DNA from: Candidatus Giovannonibacteria bacterium RIFCSPHIGHO2_02_FULL_44_11
Lineage (GTDB): Bacteria; Patescibacteriota; Minisyncoccia; UBA11713; 2-01-FULL-45-33
Direction of reading: 5' to 3'
Length of the DNA stretch: 39,364 nucleotides
Assembly: GCA_001778595.1 (NCBI GenBank)
Contig: MFHL01000004.1
Location: 9,235-48,598, forward strand
In this document: one piece after another, positions 1-11,344 of the stretch
Layout of the letters: every line of letters starts with the position of its first letter
Position numbering within the stretch: position 1 is the first letter of the stretch
Program-made: the position numbers and the translations under genes
Notes under the pieces: model-generated
Databases searched by the model: none
Seen by the model: only the letters and a program-made list of their open reading frames with translations
What the model was told of the DNA's origin: nothing

Positions 1-57
1 GACCTCGGCATCATGCTCAAAACCGCGAGTATTATGATAAGAAGAGGCGGGAGATAA
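1..57 (+). CDS. 3' end (last 18 codons + TAA) of a polyprenyl-phosphate sugar-phosphate transferase (bacterial sugar transferase family); 5' part is outside the window
   Basis: Frame +1 reads DLGIMLKTASIMIRRGGR*. The longer duplicate at 820-915 reads NDLYYVKNRSLLMDLGIMLKTASIMIRRGGR*. Together they resemble the conserved C-terminal tail (D..YY..N.S...D..I...T) of WbaP/PglC-type initiating transferases. Only the tail is visible. Confidence 0.55.
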   Translation, partial: DLGIMLKTASIMIRRGGR

Positions 58-62
58 GCTCC

Positions 63-85
63 ACTTGGAAACCGGGTTTCCAAGT
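63..85. repeat. Perfect 23-nt palindrome acttggaaacc-g-ggtttccaagt (REP-like hairpin), immediately 3' of the transposase stop codon
   Basis: Read directly: an 11-bp stem with a 1-nt centre. The same core recurs at 748-772. Confidence 0.9.
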
Positions 86-88
86 TGA

Positions 89-733
89 TTATTCCAACAA
101 CAAGCGTTCTAATTCTTTAGATTCTTCTTTTCGCTTAAGAATATCTTTGAGCGACCCTTCAGCAAAATTTTTATATTCACCTTTATTCCTGAATTGATCT
201 AAAATTATATCGGGCTTGCATAATCGGATAGATGATTTATTAAAATACTCGTCCAAACTCGAACGGAACACTTTGCCCCTATGTCTGTGAATGAGATTAT
301 TTAAATTAACATATGCGCTTAAGTGCATTAGATACTCGTTCGAATCTATATGGATCGCCTTAAATTGCCCTTGAAAAAGAACTCCGATTCTTTTGTGTTG
401 AGTATTAAAATATTTAGTATATCCCCCGCCCAAGCTCTTCATATAATTGCTAATGCCGTTATCGGCCAATTGTTCAAGAATTAGATGAAAATGATTTAAA
501 TTCAGACAATAGCAAATTATATTTACTAATTTAGATTTTTTAAGTTTTAGTTTTATATCGGAATCGAGAAAAGAATTCTCATAAATGCTGCCGATTGGCT
601 CAACAACATTAAATTCATCCATGCTTAGCAGAAAGCGATCAAAATCTTGCGATTTAGTAAAGATTGACCTTTTATCCGTCCCACGATTATATATGTGATA
701 AAATTCCCCATTCGCAAATTTTATTTTTCTCAT
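89..733 (-). CDS. REP-associated tyrosine transposase (RAYT) / IS200-like HUH-Y1 transposase family protein
   Basis: From the ATG at 731-733 the product starts MRKIKFANGEFYHIYNRGTDKRSIF. HUH motif: NHFHLIL. Downstream: GVLFQGQFKAIHIDSNEYLMHLSAYVNLN, carrying the catalytic Tyr-type 'Y..H.S.Y...N' region typical of COG1943-like proteins. The ORF-track start at 820 is a TTG that reads through the flanking hairpin, so 733 is preferred. Confidence 0.85.
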   Translation of the reverse strand: MRKIKFANGEFYHIYNRGTDKRSIFTKSQDFDRFLLSMDEFNVVEPIGSIYENSFLDSDIKLKLKKSKLVNIICYCLNLNHFHLILEQLADNGISNYMKSLGGGYTKYFNTQHKRIGVLFQGQFKAIHIDSNEYLMHLSAYVNLNNLIHRHRGKVFRSSLDEYFNKSSIRLCKPDIILDQFRNKGEYKNFAEGSLKDILKRKEESKELERLLLE

Positions 734-747
734 AGCACCTACCATAG

Positions 748-772
748 CACTTGGAAACCGGGTTTCCAAGTG
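748..772. repeat. Perfect 25-nt palindrome cacttggaaacc-g-ggtttccaagtg, second copy of the REP-like hairpin, just upstream of the transposase start
   Basis: Read directly. The core is identical to 63-85. Confidence 0.9.
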
Positions 773-819
773 GATAAGATGAACACGTAAATATATCGAA
801 AAACTCAAAAACAAGGCCA

Positions 820-915
820 AACGACCTCTACTACGTCAAAAACCGCTCGCTCCTGATGGACCTCGGCATCATGCTCAAAACCGCGAGTATTATGATAAGA
901 AGAGGCGGGAGATAA
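820..915 (+). pseudogene. Orphan duplicate of the sugar transferase 3' end (31 codons + TAA)
   Basis: Reads NDLYYVKNRSLLMDLGIMLKTASIMIRRGGR*. An in-frame TAA at 775-777 lies upstream, and there is no transferase-like sequence before about 820. The last 57 nt are identical to 1-57. Confidence 0.55.
859..915 (+). repeat. 57-bp direct repeat, 100% identical to 1-57
   Basis: gacctcggcatcatgctcaaaaccgcgagtattatgataagaagaggcgggagataa occurs at both positions. The repeat may extend further left, but the window edge hides this. Confidence 0.95.
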
Positions 916-2004
916 TTAACTCAAACGAGCCACGATGCGTCCAGCGGATTTTCCGTCTCCGAAAGGATTTTTTTTCCATTGATGTTTTTTGGCAAGCATT
1001 GTTTTGACGGCAGCTAAAATATCGTCAGGCCGCACTCCCGGGACCAAAACATTGAATCCCCCATCCACTGTTTCCGGGCGTTCGGTATTATCACGCAAAG
1101 TAACCAGCGGAACTCGCAAGGTAGCGGCTTCCTCCTGCACGCCTCCTGAATCCGTAATGATAAGTTTCGCGTTTTTTTGAAGCTGAAGCATTTCAAAATA
1201 TCCCACAGGCTCTATTATGTTTATTCCGGAGGGCATCTTAAAGCCGAGTGACGCAATTCTTTTCTTTGTTCTGGGATGCAGAGGATACAAAATTTCAACT
1301 CCTTTAAAATGTTTTTTCACCAAATCCAGTCCTTTTAATATATTCTCCAGGCGCTCCGGGTTATCCACGTTCTCCGCCCTGTGGGCGGTCACTAAAAAAT
1401 ATTTATCTTTCTTGAGCCCGATTTTTTTTAAAATTTGGTTTTTTTGGTAACTTGCCGCGTATCTTTTTACCGCGTCAACCACGGTGTTTCCTGTAAGATG
1501 GATTTTTTTCTTATCTATCCCCTCTTTCAGAAGATTATTAACGGAAGTTTTAGTGGGGGCAAAAAGAACGTCCGACAAATTATCCGTCAAAATACGGTTA
1601 ACCTCTTCAAGCATGGCCGTATCATAAGACCGAAGCCCGGCTTCGTGATGCGCAACTTTGATGCCGAGCTTGTTTGCCGCCAAAGCTCCGGCAAGAACCG
1701 TGGTAGTGTCCCCCTGCACCAAAACCCAATTGGGCTTTTCTTTTTTTAAAATTTCAGATATCCCCCTTGTGAATTTCCCGACCTGCTCATTGTAGTTTAA
1801 ATTTCCTAATCCAAGATTATATTTAGGCTTGGGAAGCCCGAGATCCTTAAAAAAAACAGAGTCCATATTTGGAGAATAATGCTGTCCCGTATGCAAAATA
1901 AAAAACGGCACGTTTTTCTTTATGCATTCATGGATTACCGGGGACATCTTTATTATTTCCGGGCGCGTACCCAATATTATCGCGATTTTAGATTTTTTCT
2001 TCAT
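916..2004 (-). CDS. wecB: UDP-N-acetylglucosamine 2-epimerase (non-hydrolysing)
   Basis: 362 aa. N-terminus KIAIILGTRPEIIKMSPVIHE...ILHTGQHYSPNMD, then VQGDTTTVLAGALAA, HHEAGLRS and ITDSGGVQEEA are hallmark WecB/MnaA motifs. ATG start. Confidence 0.9.
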   Translation of the reverse strand: MKKKSKIAIILGTRPEIIKMSPVIHECIKKNVPFFILHTGQHYSPNMDSVFFKDLGLPKPKYNLGLGNLNYNEQVGKFTRGISEILKKEKPNWVLVQGDTTTVLAGALAANKLGIKVAHHEAGLRSYDTAMLEEVNRILTDNLSDVLFAPTKTSVNNLLKEGIDKKKIHLTGNTVVDAVKRYAASYQKNQILKKIGLKKDKYFLVTAHRAENVDNPERLENILKGLDLVKKHFKGVEILYPLHPRTKKRIASLGFKMPSGINIIEPVGYFEMLQLQKNAKLIITDSGGVQEEAATLRVPLVTLRDNTERPETVDGGFNVLVPGVRPDDILAAVKTMLAKKHQWKKNPFGDGKSAGRIVARLS

Positions 2005-7479: not shown

Positions 7480-8981
7480 GAAAATATTCTATCCAGTTCT
7501 CTTTTATAAATCCTCCATAACTCCTCTTTGTCCCCAGCTCCCTTGCTCCATATGTCCCCATAATTAAAGCTGGAACCCGCGTCAAAAATCGCGGCGACAT
7601 AATTTTCCAATTTCCCTTCGTAATCTTCCGTTCTCAAATTTATGCTTAACACTTCCTTAATTTTTCGGGGCAGAGCGGTAAAATCAGTGTGCTTGAAGAC
7701 ATTGGGGAGCTTCATGGTGGTACCCAAATTTCCCAATTGGATCACGGGCTTACAAAAAAAGGCCGCTTCGCCGATGGTCGTACCGTTGGGGCTTACTATC
7801 AAATCGGCCTTTTTGAATATTTGAACAGTAGGTGTCCGATAATCAATGAATTTCACGTTAGGTGTGCGGGCAACTTTTTCCCAATAGGACATCGGACGCA
7901 ATCCAACCATTTCAGGATGTTCTTTTACAACCAGCGTATAATCGCCCGGAAGAGACATCGCCACCTGTCTGGCCGTTTCGATTTGGTTGCTGAAATTAGG
8001 AGCTATCACATCAATATTAGCTTCCGGCTGGAATTGCAGCGGAAAATAAACGCATTTCCCGACTTTCTCCAAAGGATAGAACTGAAACCGTGAAGCCGCC
8101 CATTTTTGGTATTTGTTCATGTAATGGTCACGAAGCAAAATTTTCGGGGGGCGGTAATCAACGGTTATTCCCGTGGCTTTAACGTAATCAACCGGACGCT
8201 TCCCCATCCACCACTTAAAACACTGATAATAAGGAGATAGTTCTTTTTTTAAGAAATGCCTGAAACCTAATTTCTTCGGCGTTTCGGCAGATACCTTTCC
8301 GTATTCCGCTCTGAATGTTTCAATAAATGAACGGGCTTTGTTTTGATTTGAGCTTTTCTCTTTTTGATTATTTAAATCGTCCAGTCTTTTAAAAAACGGC
8401 CCTTCGCTGTCCTGATAATTATAAGTAAACTGCCAAAATCCTTTTACCGCCCAGGAAGTTATCGCGAACATCGGAATTTTGTTTTTTTTTGCATATAAAT
8501 TGAATATGATGTGCGGCAAAGCGACAAAGTTGGGCGCAATGATAACATCGGGCTTAAACTCGCTGAAAAATACTTTCATGTATTTATAAACGGCTTTTAT
8601 GAAAAGTTCTATTCCTTCATCTGAAACGTTCTGGCGGAAAGAATAGTAATATTTTTCCCTGTACGATTTAACATGATTTCGGAGCGTGTAAGCTAAATGC
8701 CAGATGGAATCGATGCCCAGTTCTCCGCAAATCTCTTCAAAAGAAAAAACATCTCCCGCCAAATACGCCGCCGGGTCGGACATAATCGCATCATTTTCGA
8801 TTATCAGCTCATATTTTACTCCCGGCTGATTCCTTATCAATTCGTCGGTACTTTTTTTAAATGTCAGAGCGGCTAAAACGGCTTCTTCTTCCGATAATTT
8901 TTTCGCCAAAAAACGGCCTATGGTTTTTCCCCATCCGCGCTGTTGAAAAATCAAAACCCGTTTTCCTTTTAGATTATCCAT
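7476..8981 (-). CDS. Capsule-polysaccharide-biosynthesis family protein (KpsS/KpsC-like GT-B), putative glycosyl or ulosonic-acid transferase
   Basis: 501 aa. LVVKEHPEMVGLRP...PNVKFID...ADLIVSPNGTTIGEAAFFCKPVIQLG resembles the '..KxHP...(N)V.....li..a..V.t.nsT.G.EAl..gKPv...G' pattern of KpsS/KpsC-type proteins. A paralog-like protein lies at 28835-30271. Confidence 0.45.
   Translation of the reverse strand: MDNLKGKRVLIFQQRGWGKTIGRFLAKKLSEEEAVLAALTFKKSTDELIRNQPGVKYELIIENDAIMSDPAAYLAGDVFSFEEICGELGIDSIWHLAYTLRNHVKSYREKYYYSFRQNVSDEGIELFIKAVYKYMKVFFSEFKPDVIIAPNFVALPHIIFNLYAKKNKIPMFAITSWAVKGFWQFTYNYQDSEGPFFKRLDDLNNQKEKSSNQNKARSFIETFRAEYGKVSAETPKKLGFRHFLKKELSPYYQCFKWWMGKRPVDYVKATGITVDYRPPKILLRDHYMNKYQKWAASRFQFYPLEKVGKCVYFPLQFQPEANIDVIAPNFSNQIETARQVAMSLPGDYTLVVKEHPEMVGLRPMSYWEKVARTPNVKFIDYRTPTVQIFKKADLIVSPNGTTIGEAAFFCKPVIQLGNLGTTMKLPNVFKHTDFTALPRKIKEVLSINLRTEDYEGKLENYVAAIFDAGSSFNYGDIWSKGAGDKEELWRIYKRELDRIFS
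8146..8151. repeat. G6 homopolymer (C6 on the coding strand) in the KpsS-like gene
   Basis: Read directly. Confidence 0.9.
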
Positions 8982-10729: not shown

Positions 10730-11344
10730 TCAAGAAAACTTATATTTTCCTTCGCGGACCTGTAAAGCCCCTGCATCTTCTTTTTTTATTAATTCTTTCA
10801 TTTCAGCACTTTCATACGCTTTTTCTACAATTGCTTTCCACTCCTCCGGTTTCTTTTCAATCAATATTTCTTCAGCAGAAGCAAAATTTATCTTTCCGGC
10901 GGCATCTTTCACTAGAGGCGCGTATTCCACCATCGCCCGAATTCTCGGCAAATGATAACGGTTGGAGATAATAGTTATCTCACTAGCAGAAACTTCTTTC
11001 GCAATTTTCATCAATTCCTGCAACTGTTGGTAAGTGGTACCTGAATTTTTCTCTTCAATAATTTTTTCATCCGGAACGCCAAGTTCCGTCAGTTCTTTTT
11101 TTAAAATTTCCGCCAATGTTGGCGCATCGGGAATATCCTTCATCTGTCCCTTGCCGCCAAGAGCTAAAATTAGCGAATCAAAATTTTCCTTGTATAGAAA
11201 ACATGCGGCCAGAACACGCAAAACACTGCCCGGGGCGCCGTAGATCTCGTCGTCAAAACCAACAGATCGCCAAACACAGTCAGTGCCTTTGTTTACTCCT
11301 CCTCCTAATATCGCGATTATTGTTTTCAATTTTTGGTTCTCCAT
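10730..11344 (-). CDS. DUF218 (YdcF/SanA/ElyC-like) domain protein
   Basis: 204 aa. IAILGGGVNK...LILALGGKGQ...IISNRYHLPR fits the DUF218 Rossmann-like pattern. Confidence 0.55.
   Translation of the reverse strand: MENQKLKTIIAILGGGVNKGTDCVWRSVGFDDEIYGAPGSVLRVLAACFLYKENFDSLILALGGKGQMKDIPDAPTLAEILKKELTELGVPDEKIIEEKNSGTTYQQLQELMKIAKEVSASEITIISNRYHLPRIRAMVEYAPLVKDAAGKINFASAEEILIEKKPEEWKAIVEKAYESAEMKELIKKEDAGALQVREGKYKFS

Follow-up and report, generated by a model that had tools for sequence, protein, structure and literature searches.

Background

How does a small transposase unit come to stand between two identical copies of the end of a neighbouring gene that is itself unbroken? At the locus described here, a RAYT-like gene flanked by REP-like palindromes is enclosed by two such copies of the 3' end of Bac_transf, an initiating sugar transferase gene. 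RAYTs are seen as domesticated and unable to move themselves, and we know of no description of long flanking duplications for them. Long target duplications, in turn, have to our knowledge been documented almost exclusively for restriction-modification genes, with a mechanism that is unexplained. The two meet here in ultrasmall CPR genomes, where about a fifth of the RAYT units that we surveyed have a duplicated gene start or stop on either side.

Insertion with long target duplication is the subject of Nobusato et al. 2000 (Gene 259:99) and of Furuta, Abe and Kobayashi 2010 (PMC2853133). The latter criteria comprise repeats >30 bp, an insert <20 kb, a single-copy empty site and the lack of any other mobility gene; in many cases the repeats extend over a start or stop codon without disrupting the gene (Furuta 2010, PMC2853133).

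The window referred to below is the whole stretch of DNA that was analysed (39,364 nucleotides). Its host is an ultrasmall groundwater CPR bacterium.

Results

Layout of the locus

The features are listed below in window coordinates.

Outside the window, to its left, hidden by a 10-N scaffold gap: the other 36 nt of the left repeat copy
1-57, plus strand: left repeat copy, visible 57 nt; functional 3' end of Bac_transf (final 18 codons and TAA)
58-61: junction gctc, 4 nt, from the gene stop to the REP
62-85: REP-like perfect palindrome, (c)ACTTGGAAACC-G-GGTTTCCAAGT, 4 nt past the RAYT stop
89-733, minus strand: RAYT-like Y1 HUH transposase gene, 214 aa
748-772: REP-like palindrome, second copy, 15 nt upstream of the RAYT ATG
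773-822: spacer, 50 nt, AT-rich (32% GC), with the putative non-homologous joint at its right end
775-777: in-frame TAA upstream of the orphan copy
823-915, plus strand: second, orphan copy of the Bac_transf 3' end, 93 nt (DLYYVKNRSLLMDLGIMLKTASIMIRRGGR*), detached from any gene body
916-2004, minus strand: wecB-like UDP-GlcNAc 2-epimerase gene, 362 aa, Epimerase_2; its stop (916-918) abuts the orphan TAA (913-915)

The original prediction had placed perfect palindromes at 63-85 and 748-772 and 57 nt repeated without mismatch at 1-57 and 859-915, and had called the right-hand copy an orphan, with an in-frame stop upstream and a TAA abutting the wecB stop; all of these were confirmed, the left palindrome at 62/63-85. 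Bac_transf encodes 450 aa and is intact as called in other assemblies. The place of the gctc junction is taken in the relative L186 by a different short junction (TAG + a). The wecB-like gene is the first of a lineage-specific glycan cluster. The RAYT gene has a GC content of 32% vs 44% for the genome, and that of the spacer is as low as the RAYT unit's. The spacer has no second copy in the genome, is absent from orthologous RAYT units and has no homology to Bac_transf. An Rfam scan of 1-1200 returned sub-threshold chance matches only, and a promoter and terminator scan gave no signal over shuffles except at the left REP, which scores as terminator-like.

Extent and authenticity of the repeat

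The window starts directly after the scaffold gap. Eight other assemblies read across this gap, which conceals 45 nt, namely cttcaatat followed by the 36 nt of the repeat. The full direct repeat is 93 nt long (30 codons plus stop), its copies are 100% identical, and its left copy runs from -35 to 57 and so begins 36 nt before the window does. The insert between the copies measures 765 nt. The original prediction had traced the right copy at the protein level to about 820 and had raised the question of whether 820-858 is duplicated as well; the extension proved real, its exact left edge is 823, and reading leftwards of the window showed that all of 823-915 is duplicated. The boundary at 823 is sharp, with unrelated sequence outside; a degenerate continuation left of this position, sought by comparing the spacer with the native sequence, did not exceed shuffles (p about 0.11).

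In this MAG the left copy begins exactly at the 10-N gap, and the L021, L022, L023 and L024 assemblies break in or beside the repeat, as would be expected if a repeat mis-joined during scaffolding had produced the duplicate; such an artefact is hardly credible, given that eight contigs, assembled independently with different programs from different samples, cross the gap with identical order in all, that the MEGAHIT word size (k=141) exceeds the 93-nt repeat, and that one SNP is confined to a single copy in one assembly. The MEGAHIT k=141 contigs come from several samples and cross both copies, each with its distinct flanks, and the SNP, a T>C change at 869, is found in the right copy only of assembly L016. 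Because of these two observations, we conclude that the arrangement is genuine, with no collapse or chimera. The same arrangement was found in every public assembly spanning the locus. The change at 869 is a population SNP that is non-synonymous in the orphan (I>T); position 77, inside the left palindrome, also carries a SNP in one assembly.

The enclosed gene and its palindromes

The ORF at 89-733 matches Pfam Y1_Tnp (28.2 bits vs a cutoff of 23), and H81-x-H83, Y141 and N145 are invariant in an alignment of 49 family members. An AF2 model of the protein (pLDDT 85.8) retrieved 4ER8, E. coli TnpA-REP, as the top PDB match in a fold search (E 7.5e-7, target TM 0.67), followed by TnpA of IS608, ISDra2 and IS200. 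A sequence search of the PDB gave no match with either the single sequence or a 49-sequence profile. RAYT paralogues within G000 are 39-64% identical to each other. A near-identical copy of the window RAYT was found neither in the genome nor among public proteins, which include >2,500 homologues, the nearest of them being 85% identical (aa).

On either strand, both palindromes are predicted to fold into stable hairpins (z -4 to -6). A genome-wide search for the 23-nt palindrome, as the original prediction had proposed, recovered a dispersed REP-like family: copies of the same type are also present on C10, C26, C28 and C23, and at least 24 palindromes of the family occur in the genome. Each of the 49 surveyed RAYT units has its own co-varying palindrome type. 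The relative orientation of the paired REPs, judged by eye from the central base, is mixed rather than consistent. The product of 89-733 is thus a RAYT-like Y1 HUH enzyme, and the gene and its palindromes are a bona fide REP/RAYT-type system. The RAYT/REP arrangement that had been proposed from the palindromes is borne out by the HUH and Tyr motifs, the 4ER8-like fold, and cognate palindromes that lie on both sides and are dispersed.

REP/RAYT systems were reportedly described by Nunvar in 2010 and by Bertels and Rainey in 2011. With TnpA-REP (4ER8) and the Pseudomonas REPIN-RAYT system, the present one shares a Y1 HUH enzyme with HxH and Tyr, cognate palindromes that are both flanking and dispersed, a palindrome type that co-varies with each paralogue, and the lack of identical multi-copy transposase genes. 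It differs in that the protein lies far below the cutoff of the NCBIfam RAYT equivalog model NF047646 (20 bits vs 80), its palindromes, perfect and only 21-25 nt long, lack GTAG or CGTC tags, as many as 9 different paralogues are found in a genome of about 0.8 Mb, and the cognate palindrome is often in frame inside the RAYT ORF. IS200/IS605 elements (IS608, ISDra2) have in common with this unit the catalytic fold, hairpins at both ends and a length of about 0.7 kb, but they integrate 3' of a short target motif, duplicate no target sequence and occur as near-identical copies. The unit here does not fit an insertion sequence of this kind, since near-identical copies are lacking and the 93-nt repeat lies outside the hairpins.

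The locus in relatives

In L186 (84% nt identity, junction in the same place), and in G001 and L144 (about 73%), a RAYT with the same REP adjoins Bac_transf or lies close to it. The RAYT unit thus recurs beside Bac_transf in lineages that are 16-28% diverged, and the RAYT divergences match those of Bac_transf itself. Because this neighbourhood spans 16-28% divergence while the repeat copies are identical, the association of RAYT and Bac_transf is probably older than the duplication, which would be much younger than the arrival of the RAYT.

All assemblies that reach past wecB are occupied, so none provides an empty site for the window locus, and exact empty-site and spacer patterns had 0 matches in JGI metagenome contigs, a set that may leave out records of the window's own genome. 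A parent carrying the spacer in another context was likewise found neither in the genome nor in relatives or JGI contigs. Every lineage has a different set of genes following Bac_transf, and for this reason an orthologous empty site in a sister species is impossible to find. Relatives of wecB did not exceed 51% identity.

Bracketing of RAYT units and other cassettes

The survey covered about 49 RAYT paralogue units. Bracketing repeats were found just outside the REPs in 10 of the 49; they are 18-93 nt long and consist of the start or stop of the neighbouring gene. Tight brackets, defined as both repeat copies lying <=150 nt from the gene, surround 8 of these 10, and so 8 of the 49 units, vs none of 600 control segments, which were drawn at random and are not matched accessory genes. 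Apart from 4-100 nt of extra sequence, the insert nearly always consists of REP-RAYT-REP alone. Repeat lengths and distances to the REP vary across the bracketed units, among which no common motif was seen.

Where copies of a pair have diverged, 25 of the differing codons are synonymous vs 11 non-synonymous, and every 3'-end orphan keeps its frame and has its stop at the homologous position. Because the differences are mostly synonymous and the orphans keep frame and stop, the duplicated copies look, at the level of sequence, like alleles from different lineages. The window copies, being identical, carry no such signal themselves. At the G004 locus, the gene-fused copy has a foreign end type, and the orphan keeps the native end together with the native downstream flank. 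In L143, the closest relative, the orphan is 89% identical to G000 vs about 67% for the current gene end, so that the orphan is the more native-like of the two. In the corresponding test of polarity at L116, the flanking gene was without a DNA-level orthologue in the family. Empty sites are present at two sibling loci, the G004 gene end and G015 dnaG, the latter with empty dnaG sites in G007, G017 and G019.

Bracketing is not restricted to RAYT cargo, since cassettes without a RAYT and a solo palindrome are bracketed likewise: in G017 a RAYT-free cassette of about 1 kb is bracketed at the same gene end, and in L143 a palindrome stands alone with a gene end of 12 codons that has been replaced. 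Elsewhere in the genome of the window, 19 repeat pairs were found at about 14 loci.

Discussion

Probable insertion with long target duplication

The arrangement fits a known, unexplained mode of adding DNA at gene ends that leaves the gene unbroken. Like the described cases, it is a short block between direct repeats >30 bp over a stop or start, with an intact target, variable repeat length, no integrase, an unexplained mechanism, and sibling loci with single-copy empty sites. The size limits of Furuta hold for 93-nt repeats around a 765-nt insert, and the repeat covers the final 30 codons and stop of a Bac_transf that is intact. In departure from these criteria, the sole gene of the insert is a homologue of Y1 transposases, and an empty site was found at sibling loci but not at the window locus itself. 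The described cases are restriction-modification genes of cultivated bacteria, with other mobility genes excluded by definition; here, by contrast, the cargo is RAYT-like, the genomes are CPR, the copies show allele-like synonymous divergence, and the replacement end is foreign.

We consider it probable that the locus is the product of a recent recombination of this class in which the RAYT unit was carried along. Most likely, the unit is cargo or a bystander and not the maker of the duplication. Two versions of the locus would have been joined, one with REP-RAYT-REP and about 50 nt directly downstream of Bac_transf, and the other with wecB abutting the Bac_transf stop. At 822|823, a single non-homologous joint, the spacer would end and Bac_transf sequence begin, 93 nt ahead of the stop of that gene, and homology would resolve the remainder, either by homology-facilitated illegitimate recombination or by Campbell-type integration of a gene-end piece. 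The gene-fused copy would thereby keep the sugar transferase intact, and the second copy would be a non-functional orphan still tied to its original downstream neighbour, wecB. We infer both this mechanism and which parent gave which side; the polarity of insertion at the window locus is argued by analogy with the sibling loci, at one of which native and foreign ends are directly distinguishable.

Homology-facilitated illegitimate recombination, reportedly described by de Vries and Wackernagel in 2002, likewise combines a homologous exchange with a non-homologous joint and adds foreign DNA beside the anchor. In Campbell-type insertion-duplication, one crossover with a circular piece leaves the cargo flanked on each side by a copy of the homologous segment. 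Both are known from laboratory transformation, whereas competence and circular intermediates are only hypothetical for this organism. Integrative islands at tRNA/tmRNA att sites also bring a replacement end, leave the gene functional and strand an orphan at the far border, but a tyrosine or serine recombinase and a conserved att core are lacking here, and repeat length and position depend on the locus. A recombinase-driven island at the gene 3' end does not fit the locus: no integrase or other recombinase of these types was found, and the 214-aa Y1 HUH gene is the only one between the repeats.

The view that the repeat is unlike a target duplication made by a transposase was upheld. The suggestion of an insertion carrying a replacement end holds at the sibling loci, with the foreign fused end of G004 and the native-like orphan of L143; at the window locus itself there is neither an integrase nor an empty site. 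For the further suggestion of an event mediated by the element, nothing was found to show it.

Other origins of the duplication

The RAYT or its hairpins may nevertheless have driven the event, the long duplication being a by-product of RAYT/REP activity. Three routes are conceivable: an excised circle with adjacent sequence, staggered two-strand integration, or replication stalling followed by template switching. Y1 HUH transposases of IS200/IS605 make single-stranded circles, and the predicted fold of the RAYT-like protein matches TnpA-REP. The strong excess of tight brackets over random segments and the low GC shared by spacer and RAYT unit point the same way. Random recombination would not be an obvious source of inserts that almost always hold just a RAYT unit and short flanking sequence, and this regularity is a hint that the element plays a part. 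We nonetheless regard an element-driven origin as unlikely. The variable repeats without a common motif speak against it, as do the bracketed cassettes without a RAYT and the lack of a second near-identical copy of the window RAYT. In addition, synonymous divergence and foreign end types require DNA from another lineage and not local enzymology alone.

It is also conceivable, if quite unlikely, that CPR REP-RAYT units are mobile by a route other than transposition, as recombinase-free homing cassettes of which the long repeat is a functional part. Recombination between the repeats, or the making of a circle by the RAYT, would release such a unit from the chromosome along with a copy of the neighbouring gene end, and host homologous recombination would insert it at the same gene boundary in other lineages. 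The carried gene end would serve as both attachment site and replacement end.

An origin on one chromosome, by tandem duplication, replication slippage or double-strand-break repair, perhaps with later deletion, would involve neither a second lineage nor a mobile cassette. REPs serve as join points of duplications in enterobacteria, the copies here are identical, and the sole orphan polymorphism is non-synonymous, as expected of a young dead copy. We hold this origin to be distinctly improbable: a simple tandem duplication cannot put the RAYT unit and spacer between copies while the orphan abuts wecB, and the foreign end types and synonymous divergence of the sibling loci are not produced in situ.

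Should the favoured recombination of two locus versions be correct, these loci would be a tractable set of cases from nature, in which native and foreign ends can be told apart, of recombinase-free addition of DNA at gene boundaries. They would also bear on the spread of accessory genes and of REP/RAYT systems among CPR bacteria. For annotation, orphan gene ends of this kind and scaffold gaps at REPs are to be read as real features and not as errors.

Layout of the locus and length of the repeat

The window occupies G000:C4:9235-48598, where G000 is its own genome, a MAG of 853 kb in 46 scaffolds (C numbers denote contigs, G001-G019 related genomes and L numbers individual loci). At its start, a RAYT unit separates two copies of the 3' end of Bac_transf, the 450-aa initiating sugar transferase gene. 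All coordinates of the original prediction for this locus were correct, and the features are as follows.

36 nt before the window to 57: fused (left) repeat copy, full length
1-57 and 859-915: direct repeat, the exact 57 nt visible within the window
62/63-85 and 748-772: perfect palindrome, ACTTGGAAACC-G-GGTTTCCAAGT
89-733, minus strand: Y1 transposase ORF, 214 aa, Pfam Y1_Tnp match
775-777: in-frame TAA upstream of the orphan copy
50 nt left of 823: spacer
823-915: orphan (right) repeat copy, full length
916-2004: Epimerase_2 (wecB-like) gene, 362 aa, its stop at 916-918 abutting the TAA of the orphan

The duplication had been put at 57 bp or more, and a 10-N scaffold gap lies directly left of position 1. 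N-runs of many sizes occur across the assembly, which identifies them as scaffolding gaps. Eleven loci were compared, ten retrieved via the exact wecB protein (22 contigs on record) and the eleventh via the RAYT, from two NCBI MAGs, MEGAHIT k=141 assemblies of several ENA samples, two scaffolded ENA assemblies, a JGI contig and a Logan contig. Eight of the 11 cross the gap region with identical sequence, and the 45 nt under the gap comprise cttcaatat and 36 nt that lengthen the repeat. In these read-through assemblies the full repeat measures 93 nt, or 30 codons plus stop (DLYYVKNRSLLMDLGIMLKTASIMIRRGGR and stop). The stretch 820-858, which had been singled out for checking, is likewise duplicated from 823 on. 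Left of 823, similarity of the spacer to the native Bac_transf was no better than that of shuffled sequence (p ~0.11), so the repeat boundary is sharp. GC content of the spacer is 32%, like that of the RAYT unit, in a genome of 44%.

Misassembly is excluded for practical purposes on two grounds: with words of 141 nt, longer than the repeat, the MEGAHIT contigs link each copy to the sequence beside it, and in one sample only the right copy carries T>C at 869 (Ile>Thr in the orphan frame). A different sample carries a change at 77, within the left palindrome. Scaffold gaps in G000 often adjoin REP-like palindromes or repeats (C38:2095-2115 beside N-run 2116-2131; C10:11045-11050 near palindrome 11104-11126; the window start), and what they conceal tends to be copies of repeats rather than unknown sequence.

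The transposase and its palindromes

The Y1 protein matches Pfam Y1_Tnp at 28.2 bits (cutoff 23) and scores 20 bits against the NCBIfam RAYT equivalog, far below the cutoff of 80. A PDB sequence search with this protein, as a single sequence and as a profile, returned no match. H81-x-H83, Y141 and N145 are invariant in an alignment of 49 family members. An AlphaFold model was confident (pLDDT 85.8), and its best fold match was 4ER8, the E. coli REP-associated tyrosine transposase with REP hairpin bound (E 7.5e-7), followed by IS608, ISDra2 and IS200 TnpA. More than 2,500 relatives are on record in public protein collections. The taxonomic family carries ~90 Y1 copies, spread over 19 of 20 genomes and with few exceptions open in frame, and the six paralogues in G000 are all distinct.

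The 49 surveyed units share a stereotyped layout, in which a cognate palindrome precedes the ATG, usually by 11-19 nt and in divergent paralogues by as much as ~40 nt, and another lies no more than 9 nt from the stop; every paralogue has its own, co-varying palindrome. A genome-wide search for the 23-nt palindrome of the window, proposed with the possibility of a REP family in mind, placed it as one type within a CTTGG-N5-N-N5-CCAAG family of at least 24 copies, whose stems vary with compensation. Type-specific REP association and the absence of identical copies are published hallmarks of RAYTs (PMC3337134), and the units of the window's family display both. Given this layout and the agreement with the hallmarks, the window gene and its palindromes were treated as a divergent RAYT-type system. 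The REP/RAYT arrangement recognized in the original prediction is thus upheld by the motifs, the 4ER8 fold match, the cognate palindromes and the genome-wide family.

Bracketing repeats recur at RAYT units

Direct repeats of 18-93 nt lie just outside the REPs in 10 of the 49 RAYT units, so the window is not a one-off. As a control, flanking repeats were sought within 1.2 kb of 600 random 650-nt segments of G000. Any such repeat was found for 23 segments; both copies lay no more than 150 nt from the ends of the segment in 0/600, compared with eight RAYT units.

Direct repeats bracketing RAYT units (locus; genome and contig; repeat length)
window; G000:C4; 93 nt
L132; G019:C7; 56 nt
L142; G004:C45; 38 nt
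L137; G015:C12; 34 nt
L161; G011:C29; 32 nt
L011; G000:C33; 31 nt
L116; G017:C17; 29 nt core, ~89 nt diverged
L163; G002:C63; 29 nt
L160; G015:C4; 20 nt
L157; G015:C4; 18 nt

The repeats are starts or ends of neighbouring genes in all five cases looked at closely. L142 and L011 have the geometry of the window (orphan 3' end, spacer, REP, RAYT, REP, convergent intact gene). In L116 the last ~30 codons of a co-directional gene are duplicated, and in L137 the first 11 codons of a dnaG-like gene, together with its promoter in diverged form. The 63 nt between the L137 RAYT unit and the intact dnaG-like gene (L137:2166-2229, G015:C12) contain a near-consensus promoter (TTGCCT, 17 nt, TATAAT), and this stretch has weak homology to the original promoter kept beside the orphan 5' end.

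Allele-like copies at sibling loci

Codons that differ between copies are synonymous in 25 cases and non-synonymous in 11, the latter mostly conservative. All 3'-end orphans have an open frame with a stop at the homologous position, and two pairs differ in using TAA or TGA. Judged by sequence, the copies behave like alleles, a pattern unlike that of a decaying duplicate. The L142 orphan ends in cag-gag-gtg-a followed by tttttgttaaa, which is the native end and downstream flank of the G015 and G017 orthologues and nearly the native type in G007 too; the copy joined to the gene body has the ending cag-acg-cta-a, a type native in G011. These end types indicate that the RAYT unit arrived at L142 with a foreign replacement end, the original end being the orphan. 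An insertion carrying a replacement end, as had been proposed for the window, is thereby borne out at a sibling locus.

Empty sites for L137 are found in G007 and G017, where the up-copy and upstream sequence continue straight into dnaG, and the dnaG site of G019 is likewise without a RAYT. The L137 arrangement is common to G004. In G011, a RAYT of 80% identity lies ~1 kb from a dnaG of only 70% identity.

Bracketing without a RAYT

Bracketing by duplications is not specific to RAYT cargo. At L181:2200-3420 (G017:C23), a ~1-kb cassette lacking a RAYT occupies a gene end that carries a RAYT in G004. It consists of a 150-aa zinc-ribbon-like ORF and a structured-looking GC-rich stretch, bracketed by duplicated segments of 24 nt and 42 nt (gene-end and downstream sequence). 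This gene boundary in G004 and G017 appears to be a recurrent insertion hotspot. L143 (GCA_030650355.1) holds the closest relative of the window's Bac_transf (85% nt, 91% aa). At L143:2046-2145 this gene ends in a 12-codon replacement end, followed by 30 nt with a small perfect palindrome, gcctgccggcaggc, and then an orphan of the last 12 codons that is 89% identical to the G000 allele, versus ~67% for the current end. The structure is a miniature of the window's without any transposase.

In a self-comparison of G000, ~14 loci showed a total of 19 direct-repeat pairs, with lengths of 32-293 nt, identities of 88-100% and spacings of 0.2-6 kb. These loci include C34:7188-9392, C18:164-2167, C46:3011-4286, C19, C40, C41, C24 and C5; C34 has three serial repeats of 150-290 nt, and two pairs (C15, C37) resemble tRNA gene segments.

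History of the window locus

Genes downstream of Bac_transf differ in each lineage examined: a Glyphos_transf gene and then a RAYT in G001, an unknown gene in G003, an MBOAT gene in L143, and a 359-aa gene and then a RAYT in L144. A comparison with 185,579 species representatives gave the wecB-like gene no relative of more than 51% identity and best matches in phyla outside the CPR. Because of these distant, non-CPR relatives, the glycan cluster starting at the orphan copy looks horizontally acquired. With lineage-specific downstream content and a wecB without close relatives, an orthologous empty site is not to be expected, and none was found by an exact-pattern search of JGI contigs, nor in the assemblies of the same population.

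G001 and L144 also have a RAYT downstream of Bac_transf, at a distance of 1.3-1.7 kb and with the same AAACC-type REP; at the nucleotide level it is ~73% identical to the window's, and Bac_transf itself is 70-71% identical. In the closest RAYT relative, in L186 (84% nt), a convergent Bac_transf 3' end comes right after the downstream REP, reproducing the junction of the window, and no orphan copy lies within 160 nt upstream. Read most simply, these comparisons make the RAYT a long-standing neighbour of Bac_transf and the identical 93-nt copies the record of a much younger event. Two versions of the locus, Bac_transf-R-REP-RAYT-REP-spacer and Bac_transf-R-wecB (R, repeat), would have been united at 822|823 by one non-homologous joint, a scheme that leaves the recipient unchosen. 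That the spacer belonged to the RAYT side is consistent with its low GC. Alternatively, a cassette carrying a gene end may home repeatedly to Bac_transf, which would likewise explain the junction common to the window and L186.

Comparison with known systems

Furuta et al. (2010, PMC2853133), building on Nobusato et al. (2000), defined insertions with long target duplication by repeats of >30 bp that match a single copy at the empty site. These duplications often span a start or stop and leave the target gene intact; they came to light with restriction-modification genes, chiefly of naturally competent species, and their mechanism is unknown (PMC2853133). The window fits their definition in structure; its cargo is itself a transposase homologue, and its locus has yielded no empty site. 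The publications and literature searches covered describe no such flanking repeats for RAYTs or for IS200/IS605 elements.

The duplication and RAYT layout first noticed are real, with the repeat extended to 93 nt, and the repeat belongs with the insertions that keep a gene whole through duplication or replacement of its end. The part of the earlier reading that found no support is the transposase as cause: on balance, a causal role for it in the window event is unlikely. The interest of the locus derives mainly from the recurrence of such repeats and from the allele-like replacement ends at sibling loci.

Palindromes within and beside other Y1 genes

About 28 of the 49 RAYT genes hold their own cognate palindrome in frame within the ORF (G000:C16:22391-22418, C33:7426-7446 and C35:4583-4603; also, among others, L121, L133, L138, L142 and L159), and the window's RAYT has none. 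Two fixed positions carry the palindrome (~aa 57-60 and/or aa 147-150), with no increase in protein length. Self-targeting or autoregulation could lie behind it; no mention of it was found in the RAYT publications consulted. Two Y1 paralogues of G000 have GC-rich CTTGGCGG...CCGCCAAG palindromes immediately next to them (C33:7214-7234 and 7912-7932; C35:4373-4393), and thus a candidate cognate enzyme exists for such palindromes.
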